From: a virus
Taxonomy: Duplodnaviria > Heunggongvirae > Uroviricota > Caudoviricetes
Length of the DNA stretch: 5,746 nucleotides
IMG/VR virus record: IMGVR_UViG_2671180814_000012
Direction: 5' to 3' (one strand)
This document shows positions 1,086 to 4,875 of this stretch, piece by piece. Below the pieces are notes generated by a model. It was not told where the DNA came from. It was given only the letters and a program-made list of their open reading frames with translations, and made no database searches. Positions within the stretch are counted from its first letter, which is position 1. Each line of letters starts with the position of its first letter. A program made the translations under genes and the position numbers.

Positions 1086-1832
1086 TTACTTCACAACTCC
1101 CGGAAAGCTGACATTTGAACGCCAGCTATCCCAGTTAAACGTCACCCACCGACAACCGTTCATGGTCATGCGGTCCATAATCCTCTCACCAAGAAGCGTG
1201 CTCATTGCGGCATGATTCAGGTTTGTTAACATCCCGACACTGCACAGTGATGCTGTCCGGCGATCAATTATCTGGTGCAATACCACCTGCTCGTTTTTCG
1301 TCTCCCGCTGAATGCCTATTTCATCCAGGACCAGCAAATCAACCCCGCAAAGCTCCTGTAAAAATTTTTCACCGGATTTGCCGTTGTCGTAGCTGTCATG
1401 CAACACGCTCATGACATCAGACTCGGTGACGATAATCACGCTGCGCCCCTTCGCCATCAGCCGGTTACCCATCGCCGCTGCAAGGTGATTTTTCCCGGTG
1501 CCGGTTTTACCGCTGAACACAAAATTCGTGCACCCGGTCATCAGTTCGTCAGCTATGGATTTGGCCTGGCTCAGCGCGTATTTTTGCCCGTCGTTCTGCA
1601 CCTGATAATTCGCAAACGAGCATTTGCTGTGCAGAGGCTGGATGCCCGAACGATTCAGGATTTTTTCCACCCGCAACTGGCGATTCTGGCGGTTAATCTC
1701 CTCGCTGCGTTTTCGTCCTTCAGCAAGTTGCCATTCCCGCCACTCCTCCACCGTCCGGTACGGTGGAACCGCCCCCTGTGGTGCAAGTCTGTGAATACGT
1801 TCAAGAACCCCGGCTGCCGCAATGTTTTTCAT
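1086..1832 (-). CDS. dnaC: DnaC-like replicative helicase loader (AAA+ ATPase, IstB/DnaC family), phage replication protein P-position gene
   Basis: Walker A-like GKTGTGKNHLAAAMGN, which matches my recollection of the unusual GKN variant in E. coli DnaC. Walker B-like LLVLDEIG. Length 248 aa. Lies directly after the O-like gene (stop at 1839, start at 1832). The Rac equivalent would be ydaV. Confidence 0.85.
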   Translation of the reverse strand: MKNIAAAGVLERIHRLAPQGAVPPYRTVEEWREWQLAEGRKRSEEINRQNRQLRVEKILNRSGIQPLHSKCSFANYQVQNDGQKYALSQAKSIADELMTGCTNFVFSGKTGTGKNHLAAAMGNRLMAKGRSVIIVTESDVMSVLHDSYDNGKSGEKFLQELCGVDLLVLDEIGIQRETKNEQVVLHQIIDRRTASLCSVGMLTNLNHAAMSTLLGERIMDRMTMNGCRWVTFNWDSWRSNVSFPGVVK

Positions 1833-1838
1833 GCCACA

Positions 1839-2903
1839 TCACCCCCTGAATCCCGGCGGAATTTCGGTATCCGGTTCAGAAATATGATTCACACAACGCT
1901 GGTTGTTCGTGCCGCTTACCGGGAGCAACCAGGGGTTTTCAAAATTCCGGTCCGGCCCAAAAAACGTCGTCGCTCGCTGAACAAATTCCGTTCCCGCTTT
2001 CCCGGTCGCCGCCAGGTATCTCGCGTAACGCCTCACACCATCCAGCATGGTCTCTGGTGGCACCCCCTCGCGCAATCTGGCCTTCCAGGCACTGAATGCG
2101 GATTTCTTCGGGTTTGCCCCGGCACGCAACGGGTATTCCCGCCAGACCTGTTCGAACACATCCGGATAATCCACTCGTCCCACAGGCTGCCCGGTGTTTT
2201 CCGGGGCTACCCGATCGGCTTCCCGCTGAATGGCGGAATCGGCTTCAGGCTGCTGCAGTTGGAGTGATTGCTCCGGCCTTGCGGTCATCACCTGCTGCAC
2301 AGCGCCCGAATCGGCTTTCAGCGCATACGCTGAATCGGCTTCCGGTGTCGAGCCTGCTGGCTGACCAGGATTGACGGTCTGAACATCCCCTGCCTGGTTC
2401 GTGGCGTTTTTTACGCCATGGACCATAGTGTTTTGATCTTCTTTATCTGTATCTTTATCTGTATCTGTCGTGACTCGTCGTGACATGTGCGTGACATTTC
2501 GTGACGCGCCGTGACAATCGCCATTTTGTTCCCGCTTTCTTTCCCTCTCTCGCTGCGCCCTCTTGCGCTCTGCAGGAGATTTTGCGGTTTGCGAAATATT
2601 GCCGTTGTCCTCTTTAAGCACCTGGCGTTTTTCCCATCCAGTGATTAAATCACCATCAAGTACCCGCCCCTGCATCGTCTGCAAAATTGAATCAATTACC
2701 TCTTCTGTCACGTCGAGCGCACTTGCCAAATCTTCTGTCGTGACATCAATGTGACCTCGCGTGACATTTCGTGACGCGCTCACCAGGAGGTGGATATACA
2801 CTGCCATCACTGTTGCAATTGGCTGCCCTGACACCCTGGCAATTGTTCGCCACTTAGGGTCATTTGGCATGTCATGCCATAATCTGAGCCAGGCGTTAGC
2901 CAT
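1839..2903 (-). CDS. Phage replication initiator (lambda O-like functional position) with internal origin iterons
   Basis: About 354 aa from ATG at 2903, preceded by GAGGTG about 5 nt upstream (track ORF begins at GTG 2909). Located between the CII-position gene and the DnaC-like gene. Contains two clusters of phased CGTGAC repeats, as lambda O contains ori. Basic and acidic low-complexity linker (RKRAQRERERKREQ, TDTDKDTDKED). Confidence 0.7.
   Translation of the reverse strand: MANAWLRLWHDMPNDPKWRTIARVSGQPIATVMAVYIHLLVSASRNVTRGHIDVTTEDLASALDVTEEVIDSILQTMQGRVLDGDLITGWEKRQVLKEDNGNISQTAKSPAERKRAQRERERKREQNGDCHGASRNVTHMSRRVTTDTDKDTDKEDQNTMVHGVKNATNQAGDVQTVNPGQPAGSTPEADSAYALKADSGAVQQVMTARPEQSLQLQQPEADSAIQREADRVAPENTGQPVGRVDYPDVFEQVWREYPLRAGANPKKSAFSAWKARLREGVPPETMLDGVRRYARYLAATGKAGTEFVQRATTFFGPDRNFENPWLLPVSGTNNQRCVNHISEPDTEIPPGFRG
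2440..2463. repeat. Tandem 12-bp direct repeat tctttatctgta x2 (with a partial third copy tctgt), adjacent to iteron cluster 1
   Basis: Read directly: 2440-2451 and 2452-2463 are identical. Locally AT-richer than the surrounding gene. Encodes the acidic DKDTDKD stretch of the initiator on the minus strand. Confidence 0.8.
2469..2515. repeat. Iteron-like array 1: five CGTGAC copies phased at about 10-11 bp (candidate replication origin inside the initiator gene)
   Basis: CGTGAC begins at 2469, 2479, 2490, 2500 and 2510, roughly one helical turn apart. Lies in the middle (linker) region of the O-like CDS. Confidence 0.65.
2739..2779. repeat. Iteron-like array 2: four (C/T)GTGAC copies phased at about 10 bp, including a 21-bp exact duplicate of part of array 1
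   Basis: CGTGAC at 2739, 2760 and 2770, TGTGAC at 2750; an inverted copy TGTCACG at 2706-2712. gcgtgacatttcgtgacgcgc occurs at 2489-2509 and again at 2759-2779, exactly 270 bp apart. Confidence 0.6.
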
Positions 2904-2974
2904 ACTCACCTCTTCTGATACCGAATCTTTTTACTCACGAGTTGCCGGGAGCGATTCGATATGGCTATTGTCAG

Positions 2975-3400
2975 TCAATGTACTGCCACAGCATTTCCTG
3001 CCGGGCCACCACGGTTCATCTGATTGAAACCGGCGATTGCCACTGCGACAAAATCATCAGCGTCTCTCACCAGTCGTTCATGCGTCTCCACCAGTTCCCG
3101 AAAATAAGCTGAACTGTGGCTGCGCATTCGAGCCACCAGCGGAGGTGGCATTGCCCTTTCGATCGCAGGTAACAACGCCTGAATTTTTTCAACAGCGTCA
3201 GGGGTGTCTTTATCCAGCCAACGGAAAATCTTTTGGGTGTTGAGATAAAGCGTGTTGTGCTTGCTGTCGTTATGCAGAACCGGAAACGTCATTCCCAGTT
3301 CGAAATAAACCCTGGTTATTTCAGCTGCCGGAACTTTTTCACCGTCCGGATGCGCCCAGGCTTTCATCGCCATGCGGATGTGTTCATGCTTGATTTTCAT
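2975..3400 (-). CDS. ydaT: CII-position regulator, YdaT-like (proposed functional analogue of lambda CII in Rac/CP-933P-type prophages)
   Basis: 141 aa starting MKIKHEHI.... ATG at 3400 preceded by GGGGGTGA. Its start overlaps the stop of the upstream Cro-like gene (ATGA at 3397-3400). Position between cro-like and O-like genes. Family name is from recall of Rac YdaT (about 140 aa), not from a search. Confidence 0.6.
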   Translation of the reverse strand: MKIKHEHIRMAMKAWAHPDGEKVPAAEITRVYFELGMTFPVLHNDSKHNTLYLNTQKIFRWLDKDTPDAVEKIQALLPAIERAMPPPLVARMRSHSSAYFRELVETHERLVRDADDFVAVAIAGFNQMNRGGPAGNAVAVH

Positions 3401-3660
3401 GAATCACCCCCCGCCGATGGTTGTGTGTTAGCCTGAAACTCAGCAGGCAAGCCGTCAGTTGGGTTGGGGTAGGTTTTACTGTCAATCTCATGTGGGGTCA
3501 CCACCCATCCCGTTGCTTCACACCAACGTAATATTTTTTCTCCTGTAAGTTTTGCACGCCCCGTTATAACGTGGCTGACCATCCCTTGGGATGCGCCAAC
3601 AATCTCAGCAAATGAACTCTGGGTTATATGAAAATGATGCAAATATTCTCCAAGATTCAT
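3397..3660 (-). CDS. ydaS: Cro-like HTH transcriptional regulator (YdaS/Cro-CI family), first gene of the early-right-equivalent operon
   Basis: About 87 aa from ATG at 3660 (MNLGEYLHHF...), preceded by AGGGCGG; the track ORF extends to a TTG at 3687. Candidate HTH segment SFAEIVGASQGMVSHVITGRAKLTGEKILR. Divergent from the repressor gene across an operator-containing intergenic region. Confidence 0.65.
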   Translation of the reverse strand: MNLGEYLHHFHITQSSFAEIVGASQGMVSHVITGRAKLTGEKILRWCEATGWVVTPHEIDSKTYPNPTDGLPAEFQANTQPSAGGDS

Positions 3661-3696
3661 AATCCGCCCTATGTGATGTGTTACCAATGCATAATT

Positions 3697-3759
3697 AATA
3701 GCACTGTTATTTTTAAAAGTAAATAGTGATGCTATTTCAAAGTGATTAGCAATCTTATT
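3697..3759. promoter_or_regulatory. OR-like operator region: three 15-bp dyad-symmetric sites between the divergent repressor and cro-like genes (expected to overlap PR/PRM-type promoters)
   Basis: Sites at 3697-3711 (aatagcactgttatt), 3722-3736 (aatagtgatgctatt, near-perfect palindrome) and 3745-3759 (attagcaatcttatt, weakest). Centre-to-centre spacing is 25 and 23 bp. Half-site consensus AATAGY / GCTATT. A candidate minus-strand -35 TTGAAA sits at 3740-3735 with a poor -10; promoter hexamers are not confidently assignable. Confidence 0.6.
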
Positions 3760-3771
3760 AGAATTGGATGT

Positions 3772-4272
3772 ATGAAAAGAAAATCATTGTCAGACACCGA
3801 CCTCAACGCCGCCAGAAGACTGAAAGAAATCTGGATGGCAAAGAAATCTCAGTTGGGATTGACTCAGGAACGTGCGGCGGAAATTATGGGGTTTTCAACA
3901 CAAGGGGCGGTAAGTCACTACCTAAATGGTCAAACCCCACTAAACCTTGAGGCTGTTCTAAAGTTTGCTGGCTTACTGAAAGTTCCCCCTGAGTCAATCA
4001 GGCCAGACATGGTAGATTTGCTGCAAATTGCAAGGATGTATTGTCGAGAACCACAGCAAGATAACATAGTCGCATTACCAGCAGACACAGAACAAACAGA
4101 GGATGAACTACCGTTTGCCGTAGAGCCGATGGAACGAGATTTAATCCATACGTTCAGAGCTTTTCCGAAAGAAGATCAAGAACACATGCTTCAGGAGATG
4201 AAAGATAAAAAAGAATCAATGGATCGTACGGTTGCGCGGTGGTTAGCTGCACAAAAAGGCCGTCGCGCCTAA
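3772..4272 (+). CDS. paaR2: Prophage repressor with a lambda CI-like N-terminal HTH domain and a short acidic C-terminal region lacking a LexA/S24 peptidase domain (RacR/PaaR2-like)
   Basis: From ATG 3772 (MKRKSLSDTDLNAARRLKEIWMAKKSQLGLTQERAAEIMGFSTQGAVSHYLNGQ...), 166 aa. This aligns by eye with the lambda CI N-terminus (...[41 protein letters not shown]...). The track ORF starts at GTG 3742, which would run through operator site 3. No Ala-Gly cleavage site or Ser/Lys dyad context is recognisable. Symbol is recall-based and tentative. Confidence 0.75.
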   Translation: MKRKSLSDTDLNAARRLKEIWMAKKSQLGLTQERAAEIMGFSTQGAVSHYLNGQTPLNLEAVLKFAGLLKVPPESIRPDMVDLLQIARMYCREPQQDNIVALPADTEQTEDELPFAVEPMERDLIHTFRAFPKEDQEHMLQEMKDKKESMDRTVARWLAAQKGRRA

Positions 4273-4291: not shown

Positions 4292-4486
4292 ATGAGTACA
4301 GTCCTTTCCCCAATGGTTTCAGAATTTGAGACAGTTGAGCAAGAAAATAGTTACAACGAATGGCTGCGGGCCAAAGTAGCAGCAAGCCTCGCGGATCCCC
4401 GCCCGGCGATTCCGCATGATGAGGTAATGGCGGAAATGGAACAAATTATTGCCCAAATTGCTGCTGCAACTCACAGAGGTGAATAA
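4292..4486 (+). CDS. paaA2: Small type II antitoxin partnered with ParE (PaaA-like, ParE-associated antitoxin)
   Basis: 64 aa (MSTVLSPMVSEFETVEQENSYNEWLRAKVAASLADPRPAIPHDEVMAEMEQIIAQ...). AGGAG 8 nt upstream of the ATG. Its stop overlaps the toxin start (TAATG at 4483-4488). Size and partner match my recollection of the roughly 63-aa PaaA2 antitoxin of E. coli O157; unverified. Confidence 0.65.
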   Translation: MSTVLSPMVSEFETVEQENSYNEWLRAKVAASLADPRPAIPHDEVMAEMEQIIAQIAAATHRGE

Positions 4487-4776
4487 TGTTACCCGTTTTA
4501 TGGCTACCATCTGCTCGTGATGATTTGCGCCAGATCGTAGCCTACATAGCTAAAGAAAATCCCGCGGCAGCACGCAGAATGAAAATTCGAATTGAAACAT
4601 CCGTTTTGCCGCTCACAGAGCATCCTTACCTGTATCCTCCAAGCGAGCGAGTTCTTGGTCTTCGTGAAATTGTAACTCATCCTAACTACATCATCCTTTA
4701 CCGAGTAACAGCATCAAGCATAGAAGTAGTAAATATTGTGCATTCTCGAAGACAGTATCCAGGCAAAAACAGTTAA
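4486..4776 (+). CDS. parE2: ParE/RelE-superfamily toxin (ParE-family type II toxin)
   Basis: 96 aa. ParE-like pattern: N-terminal LPVLWLPSARDDLRQIVAYIAKENPAAARR and C-terminal YRVTASSIEVVNIVHSRRQYP (ParE consensus ...I.I.RVLH.R.D-like). Overlaps the upstream antitoxin by one base. Followed by an intrinsic terminator. Confidence 0.8.
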   Translation: MLPVLWLPSARDDLRQIVAYIAKENPAAARRMKIRIETSVLPLTEHPYLYPPSERVLGLREIVTHPNYIILYRVTASSIEVVNIVHSRRQYPGKNS

Positions 4777-4832: not shown

Positions 4833-4875
4833 AATAGCGATGCTATTTACATCAAAAAAATAATGATGCTATTGT
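4833..4875 (+). promoter_or_regulatory. OL-like operator pair carrying the same dyad motif as the OR region, overlapping a candidate PL-type promoter reading rightward
   Basis: aatagcgatgctatt at 4833-4847 is a perfect 6-3-6 palindrome; aataatgatgctatt at 4859-4873; spacing 26 bp. Candidate -35 TTTACA (4846-4851) and -10 TATTGT (4870-4875) with an 18-bp spacer, both overlapped by the operators. Confidence 0.55.

Follow-up and report, generated by a model that had tools for sequence, protein, structure and literature searches.

Two phased iteron arrays in the gene of a prophage replication initiator as a probable bipartite origin

The 5,746-nt stretch of DNA analysed here (the window) belongs to the IMG/VR virus record IMGVR_UViG_2671180814_000012 and covers the part of a lambdoid-type enterobacterial prophage that serves immunity and replication. 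Its replication initiator gene lies on the minus strand at 1839-2903 and carries two clusters of the hexamer GTCACG (CGTGAC on the plus strand), one in the part of the gene encoding the linker (array A) and one in the part encoding the DNA-binding domain (array B). Comparison of homologous genes indicates that both arrays are functional DNA sites under selection on the DNA itself. The segment 2395-2779 is probably a bipartite replication origin inside the gene of its own initiator, in which array B would be a second selected binding region.

Nine copies of CGTGAC occur in the window, all of them within 307 nt (2469-2775), and none of 200 whole-window shuffles reached this number (mean 2.56, maximum 7). 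Array A (2469-2515, minus strand) consists of five GTCACG iterons and encodes CHGASRNVTHMSRRVTT (aa 130-146) in the linker; its CGTGAC copies start at 2469, 2479, 2490, 2500 and 2510, at a spacing of 10, 11, 10 and 10 nt. Array B (2739-2779, minus strand) encodes ASRNVTRGHIDVT (aa 43-55). Exact copies of CGTGAC start here at 2739, 2760 and 2770 and a one-mismatch version, TGTGAC, is present at 2750-2755 (spacing 11, 10 and 10 nt), which on the coding strand gives GTCACG at 2775-2770, 2765-2760 and 2744-2739 and GTCACA at 2755-2750. Two helically phased arrays inside the initiator gene, at 2469-2515 and 2739-2775, had already been described in a sequence-only reading of the window, and they were found again here. 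The four copies counted in the second cluster at that time hold as four positions, only three of which are exact, the fourth being the TGTGAC variant. A single inverted iteron, GTCACG read on the plus strand at 2707-2712, was absent from that earlier list; it encodes part of a D-V-T sequence in the turn of the helix-turn-helix.

The iterons are 6-bp asymmetric cores with weak flanks. All three reading frames are used for the coding-strand unit GTCACG, which accordingly gives V-T, S-R or H; lying in coding DNA, the iterons impose their sequence on the encoded peptides (ASRNVT..., VT, SR, H). The 21-mer GCGTGACATTTCGTGACGCGC is present exactly twice in the window, where none is expected by chance, with one copy in array A (2489-2509) and the other in array B (2759-2779), 270 nt or 90 codons away. 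The exact 11-mer TCTGTCGTGAC is repeated at the same offset of 270 nt (2464-2474 and 2734-2744). As had been noticed before, the 21-mer is duplicated in frame: it translates to A-S-R-N-V-T at residues 43-48 in the N-domain and at residues 133-138 in the linker, counted from the ATG at 2903.

The initiator gene encodes 354 aa from this ATG; the open reading frame spans 1839-2909 on the minus strand and GTG at 2909 is an alternative start. Besides its place in the list of open reading frames, the gene was identified by a match of residues 3-356 to phrog_3729, 'replication initiation protein' (E 3e-250), and by the name 'phage replisome organizer' that homologues carry at NCBI. The protein is composed of a DnaD-like winged-helix N-domain (aa 1-126, encoded at 2526-2903, minus strand), a linker and a DnaT-like C-domain (~aa 240-354, encoded at 1842-2186, minus strand). 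Residues 1-126 were modelled with AlphaFold2 from 80 sequences (mean predicted local distance difference test score, pLDDT, of 82.4), which gave helices at residues 16-25, 29-45, 56-63 and 67-77, followed by a beta wing (78-87); an earlier model of the full-length protein (pLDDT 47.7) was too poor and was left unused. Structure comparison showed that the N-domain fold resembles the N-terminal domain of DnaD, and the title of entry 8ojj describes the structure of this DnaD domain as tetrameric. The Pfam family Phage_rep_org_N (PF09681) aligns end to end with the N-domain, albeit below threshold (E 0.013). According to the model, array B encodes the last part of helix 29-45 together with the loop that precedes the helix-turn-helix, inside the DNA-binding domain.

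Positions 214-311 of the family profile match the C-terminal domain of DnaT (6aep, E 7e-6; 2ru8, 2e-4; 9zbt, 9e-4), and the C-terminal ~100 residues share the terminal SEPDxxIPPGFRG of DnaT. The protein is not a full-length DnaT, since the NCBIfam DnaT equivalog NF002770 scored 18.1 bits against a cut-off of 201 and matched the last 24 residues only. For the whole initiator protein, no Pfam family was found at E ≤ 0.01, and none of its matches was to Phage_rep_O. The gene had been called O-like in the sequence-only reading, a name that has to be dropped: homology to lambda O was rejected, as there was no Phage_rep_O match and BLASTP against lambda O gave an E value of 0.15 in the low-complexity linker only, and DnaD-like and DnaT-like domains were found instead. 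On these sequence comparisons the initiator is a functional analogue of lambda O that is not related to it by descent.

On the coding strand, array A is directly followed by an AT-rich tract (2425-2468) made of GATAAA/GATACA units and encoding TDTDKDTDKED; A+T amounts to 75% over 2425-2464. This tract is the presumed unwinding element, and GATAAA-type tracts generally follow array A in homologues. It can also be described as a 12-nt tandem repeat, GATAAAGATACA, that encodes TDKD units and differs in copy number among prophages that are 94-100% identical (L001-L080), the version in the window being among the shortest. After the tract comes an inverted repeat, TGGTTCGTGGCGT / ACGCCATGGACCA (2395-2425), with the core TGGCG, an A-rich loop and CGCCA. 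As single-stranded DNA it is predicted to form a hairpin of -8.7 kcal/mol (z -3.1), and the TGGCG...CGCCA core is kept in enterobacterial homologues with either of the two N-domains discussed in this text. The inverted repeat was also flagged as terminator-like on the antisense (plus) strand. A conserved hairpin as a universal part after the AT-rich tract was rejected, since only 10 of 40 genes did better than 190 of 200 shuffles, and was retained for the enterobacterial group only. DnaA boxes were absent from 1900-3260, and their number in the whole window was at chance level. An internal promoter or terminator role of the repeats found no support either: a promoter-like match at 2491-2518 is made of iterons, and the counts equalled the shuffle expectation.

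Homologous DNA was obtained from eight diverged homologues (46-93% protein identity), from a scan of one genome per species that yielded 63 loci, ~35 of them with the N-domain, and from 80 near-identical viral contigs as close relatives. In total, 44 homologous genes from Gamma- and Betaproteobacteria were examined, with hosts that include Enterobacterales, Pseudomonas, Bordetella, Acidovorax, Aquitalea, Castellaniella and Gilvimarinus. Arrays were called from the commonest CG-containing hexamer in the first 600 nt of each gene, and three iteron classes were distinguished, GTCACG, GTAACG and CGAACG. This comparison had been set beforehand as the test that could refute the significance of the repeats, should relatives keep the protein and not the phased repeats; the outcome spoke against such a refutation. 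Two clusters, at gene nt ~129-181 and ~380-490, were found at these same places in ~35 of the 44 genes, and 38 of the 44 have the hexamer of their class at the position of array A. Within the arrays, neighbouring iterons were 10 nt apart in 124 cases and 11 nt apart in 38. Array B occupies the same codons in genes of two proteobacterial classes that are 57-71% identical in the N-domain. In the 80 close relatives the iteron arrangement is constant save for a few single-base changes. All insertions and deletions in the N-domain alignment of the homologues are confined to the array B loop; in P0005 this loop has 7 additional aa, the length of two iterons (21 nt). Other homologues, too, contain the two-iteron unit GTCACG-MAAT-GTCACGC in each of their arrays.

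The conservation extends to the choice of codons. In 300 synonymous-codon shuffles per gene the observed hexamer count was reached at most once, and this held for 34 of 34 genes. A comparison of 22 genes of the GTCACG class showed that A43 is encoded by GCG and S44 by TCA in 21 genes each, and that V47 (GTC), T48 (ACG), G50 (GGT), H51 (CAC), V54 (GTC) and T55 (ACG) have the same codon in all 22. Four-fold degenerate third positions under the array B iterons are invariant. The spacer codon of R49 varies between CGA, CGC, CGT and CGG, and invariant residues outside the array use two to six codons (0.8-2.3 bits). Constraint also extends to the inverted copy, where V65 is encoded by GTG in 20 of 20 homologues; other conserved valines use three or four codons.

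These data bear on the explanation that the repeats are a by-product of selection for a repeated peptide motif, the DNA itself being without cis function. It could draw on the R-G pair of the loop and its constant basic length, both of which are conserved even in a clade devoid of recognisable array B iterons, so that structure constrains part of the peptide. A demand on the peptide alone does not account for invariant third positions, for hexamer counts that synonymous codons hardly ever reproduce, or for iterons that are read as VT, SR and H in the three frames. Moreover, the loop peptide is wholly different in each iteron class (ASRNVTRGHIDVT, ASNATERGRTQNV and NAGVTQSNA), and the periodicity of the DNA is kept throughout, which makes this explanation hardly credible.

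Both arrays also change class together. When the class was called independently for each array, the two agreed in 24 of the 44 genes and were discordant in none; at least one array was unassigned in the remaining 20, mostly owing to ties from few copies. Agreement in 10,000 permutations had a mean of 12.3 and a maximum of 19. Switches between GTCACG and GTAACG have occurred at least three times, in the clade of L081, L082 and L121, in L083, L108 and L111 as compared with their close sister L113, and in L119. The pairing is visible in the peptides of most of 79 family proteins that were aligned with the N-domain of the window, where the loop NVTRGH goes with the linker CH..SR.VT and the loop NATERGRTQ with the linker NA.ER..TP. 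In the GTAACG class the frame that would give TAA is avoided; its arrays use the V-T and x-N-x frames, at a spacing that mostly alternates between 10 and 11 nt. Inspection of the recognition helix by eye revealed no consistent residue that determines the iteron class.

The sequence-only reading had left room for array B, or the shared 21-mer, being a neutral remnant of a duplication of, or gene conversion from, array A. The exact 21-mer and 11-mer at their common offset of 270 nt are what such an event would leave behind, and stretches of 27-39 nt common to both arrays in some homologues show that sequence has been exchanged between them. A neutral remnant would not be expected to remain at the same codons of genes as diverged as those from the two proteobacterial classes, to hold its iteron bases constant against the drift of spacer bases and of synonymous sites nearby, or to change class in step with array A, and we consider it very improbable. 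The frozen codons and the hexamer counts beyond those of synonymous shuffles therefore argue that the arrays are neither a duplication remnant nor a coding coincidence. Another proposal of the sequence-only reading, that the repeat DNA is at once a cis element and coding sequence and is constrained in either role, is supported by the frozen synonymous sites and the joint switching of class.

A second family of initiators shares the C-domain and linker and has a different N-domain (P0033 type; phrog_1701 and phrog_25210). Homology between the N-domains of the two families was not detectable with hhalign (probability 0.2%). Genes of the P0033 type (L152:2001-3110, L154-L233) have two in-frame arrays of the 10-mer GAAGGGGCTT at 11-nt spacing, 255 nt apart, at gene nt ~184-205 and, in the linker, at ~439-470; each encodes EGASKGL or a close variant. 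The first of these lies within a segment that, to judge by its sequence, presumably encodes a helix-turn-helix. In 44 sequence variants of this type, read by eye, the iteron bases are fixed, and variation is seen in the eleventh (spacer) base and at synonymous sites on either side. As the P0033 type has two arrays of another repeat, the layout is not peculiar to one lineage. A further combination was seen in L126:1501-2690 (a Serratia metagenome-assembled genome) and L137:1501-2800 (Pantoea), in which the N-domain of the window's family is followed by a GIY-YIG-like segment (YVYYVATTDGDVVRVGISRNPWAR) that replaces the iteron linker; these two genes lack GTCACG-type arrays and contain repeated ACTACG words.

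It might be asked whether the arrays are cis elements for another protein, a host factor or another phage protein, and not for the N-domain of the initiator. The core of only 6 bp would leave some room for such a binder. The arrays co-occur with the N-domain across differing C-domains and hosts and irrespective of whether a DnaC-like, a lambda-P-like or no loader gene is present, the same C-domain with the other N-domain goes with a different repeat, and the region has no DnaA boxes. A binder other than the initiator is for these reasons highly unlikely.

For the bipartite origin, we infer from the sequence data the binding by the N-domain, the origin activity, the unwinding site, the recruitment of the helicase and the role of array B in the following manner. 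The winged-helix N-domain would recognise the 6-bp core GTCACG, so that one face of the DNA is contacted once in every helical turn. Array A, the AT-rich tract and the inverted repeat would together form a lambda-like core where the duplex opens, and the DnaT-like C-domain, helped by the DnaC-like loader, would bring the host helicase DnaB to this core. Array B, ~220 bp upstream of array A and made up of four direct sites and one inverted site, would bind the same initiator, and the two arrays would most likely cooperate via initiator oligomerisation, by which the intervening DNA could be looped or wrapped.

A number of observations weigh against this bipartite origin. No AT-rich tract adjoins array B. 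The inverted repeat at the place of the hairpin, which in other lineages is a different GC-rich one, is individually weak in most lineages, with 10 of 40 genes at or below 10 of 200 shuffles. A small clade formed by L115, L117 and L122 has the same loop length without recognisable array B iterons and with weak linker ones; because of this clade, array B is dispensable for the protein and perhaps for replication. L081 and L082 share 27-39 identical nt between their arrays, so the covariation could partly reflect gene conversion between arrays and not independent selection. The two arrays appear to be held in helical phase only loosely (resultant 0.50-0.61 according to the period chosen, for genes that are not independent samples), and face-specific looping is therefore unsupported. 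No published experiment on binding or origin activity was found for this locus or for any family member.

Array B could instead be bound by the initiator as a control element outside the initiating complex, an explanation that we regard as unlikely and at the same time as a serious contender. It might act as a roadblock or in autorepression within the initiator's own gene, in titration or handcuffing against re-initiation, or as a fork barrier that imposes unidirectionality or a mode switch. The position of array B within a transcribed gene, upstream of the unwinding site and without an adjoining AT-rich tract, would suit such roles, as would its apparent absence from the clade of L115, L117 and L122. 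In phage SPP1, the organiser bound at oriR has been proposed to stall the fork and to trigger the theta-to-sigma switch (PMC6316719), and oriL fires unidirectionally (PMC5737612). On the other hand, sequence alone does not separate a positive from a negative role, and the promoter-distal extra iterons of Shiga toxin (Stx) phages bind O weakly and are nevertheless required for replication (PMC7466680).

The bipartite origin may also be seen as one instance of something wider, namely a general and convergently evolved two-array design of phage initiator genes in which the initiator bridges the arrays in a looped complex; this extension is speculative and, in our view, rather doubtful. In such a design the DNA for the initiator's own helix-turn-helix would have binding sites on both sides or, as in the second family, within it, and protein and origin specificity would form one compact cassette that mosaic recombination could not separate. 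The looped complex would be needed for firing or would set the direction of replication. If true, the design would explain why both arrays switch iteron type together and why the same arrangement exists in two families without detectable N-domain homology.

The minus-strand genes of the window are transcribed in the order cro-like (3397-3687), cII/YdaT-like (2975-3400), initiator, DnaC-like helicase loader, and DUF1627 and DUF977 genes. The loader gene (1086-1832, minus strand) is located directly downstream of the initiator gene, at lower coordinates. Its product matches Pfam IstB_IS21 (E 3e-19), phrog_50 and NCBIfam PRK12377 (499 bits); against NCBIfam DnaC it scored 296 bits, which is under the cut-off. 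Among relatives, L086, L088 and L234 (E. coli CFT073 1334993-1336057) have no loader gene after the initiator, the next gene being a DUF977 or a winged helix-turn-helix gene. A lambda-P-like loader accompanies this N-domain and its arrays in relatives from Yersinia and Serratia (L084, L087). The plus strand of the window carries a cI-like repressor gene (3742-4272) and a PaaA2/ParE toxin-antitoxin pair (4292-4776) that lies directly 3' of it on the same strand; the antitoxin is of the PaaA2 type (PF21217, E 3e-23) and the toxin is ParE (PF05016, E 2e-17). The 14-mer ATAGYGATGCTATT is present three times, at 3723-3736, 4834-4847 and 4860-4873, against 0.01 expected. One copy is situated in the intergenic region between the repressor and cro-like genes and two are beyond the toxin-antitoxin pair, and they look like the right and left operators of the repressor.

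Of 5426 complete E. coli genomes, 1817 (about one third) contain the 530-nt segment that comprises the N-domain and the putative origin, at up to four places per genome; the CFT073 copy of the initiator is annotated as 'hypothetical protein'. Cross-talk or competition for the initiator could arise between co-resident prophages of one iteron class, and the iteron class would predict the replication compatibility or cross-talk of such prophages and could be used as a simple typing marker. Provided that both arrays are needed, the locus would serve as a model of a bipartite origin that occurs in nature and is easy to manipulate. The auxiliary array could be destroyed by synonymous recoding with the protein untouched, which would allow a clean test of a second initiator-binding cluster, the role of which is still debated for bipartite chromosomal origins. 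The gene is also an unusually clear case of dual coding, with codon choice apparently frozen by a DNA-binding function: a loop of the DNA-binding domain gets its amino acid sequence from the site that this very domain is predicted to recognise.

Both origins inside initiator genes (lambda, SPP1 oriL) and two-cluster origins (SPP1 oriL/oriR, phage-inducible chromosomal islands, bipartite oriC) are already known. A literature search that left the likeliest review uncovered gave no account of a second array in the coding region of an initiator's DNA-binding domain that covaries with a linker array, and none of the origin of this initiator family; the paper on Eru-type Stx phages makes no mention of iterons. 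Lambda O is one of the closest points of reference. A check of its sequence agreed with the earlier statement that it has one iteron block, as a single cluster was found and nothing iteron-like in the N-terminal coding part. In lambda ori a palindrome follows the AT-rich tract, so that the order is iterons, AT-rich tract, palindrome, as in the window. The coding-strand order of iterons and then an AT-rich tract is common to both systems, the lambda sequence after the iterons being A-rich. As in the present gene, lambda ori is contained in the initiator gene, where it separates the parts for the N- and C-terminal domains (lambda record, PMC7466680), and its iteron DNA encodes a linker, so that changes in iteron number alter the length of the protein; some lambda-type Stx phages carry six iterons (PMC7466680). 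In lambda, however, there are four 18-bp iterons (of the 18-19-bp type) with internal dyad symmetry, whereas the window has two clusters of 6-bp asymmetric cores at 10/11-nt spacing, the second of them inside the coding region of the DNA-binding domain. Sequence homology to O is absent, and the loader is DnaC-like and not lambda P.

The replisome organiser of Bacillus phage SPP1, gp38 (G38P), a kind of protein after which NCBI names the homologues of the window's initiator, binds direct repeats in its own gene beside an AT-rich unwinding element, and also a second set of repeats elsewhere, at oriR (PMC6316719); the window likewise has direct repeats in the initiator gene beside an AT-rich tract, and corresponding binding is predicted. 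The second SPP1 site is ~13 kb away, outside the gene and with its own AT-rich element. In contrast, the second array described here is ~220 bp away, in the gene and without an AT-rich tract of its own, and the C-domain of the initiator is DnaT-like. Phage-inducible chromosomal islands (PICI), including the Staphylococcus aureus pathogenicity islands (SaPI), resemble the window in having short iterons in two sets that are used by an element-encoded initiator (PMC6092414). The PICI sets are intergenic and flank an AT-rich melting region (PMC6092414), whereas the AT-rich tract of the window is outside the pair and beside array A only. Between the arrays there is ~220 bp of ordinary coding DNA, unlike in PICI; at 33-67% A+T it holds no tract comparable to that at 2425-2468.

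DnaT of E. coli (primosomal protein I) has no sequence-specific origin-binding domain, and the part that it shares with the initiator is the C-domain. The putative binding sites of the window are direct repeats about one helical turn apart, as is typical of iteron-type origins. In bipartite oriC, exemplified by oriC1/oriC2 of Helicobacter pylori and by Bacillus subtilis, there are two clusters of initiator boxes with coding DNA of the initiator gene region between them, and only one of the clusters adjoins the unwinding element. The boxes there are those of the initiator DnaA and lie on either side of dnaA, ~1 kb or more apart, whereas both arrays described here are located inside the initiator gene.

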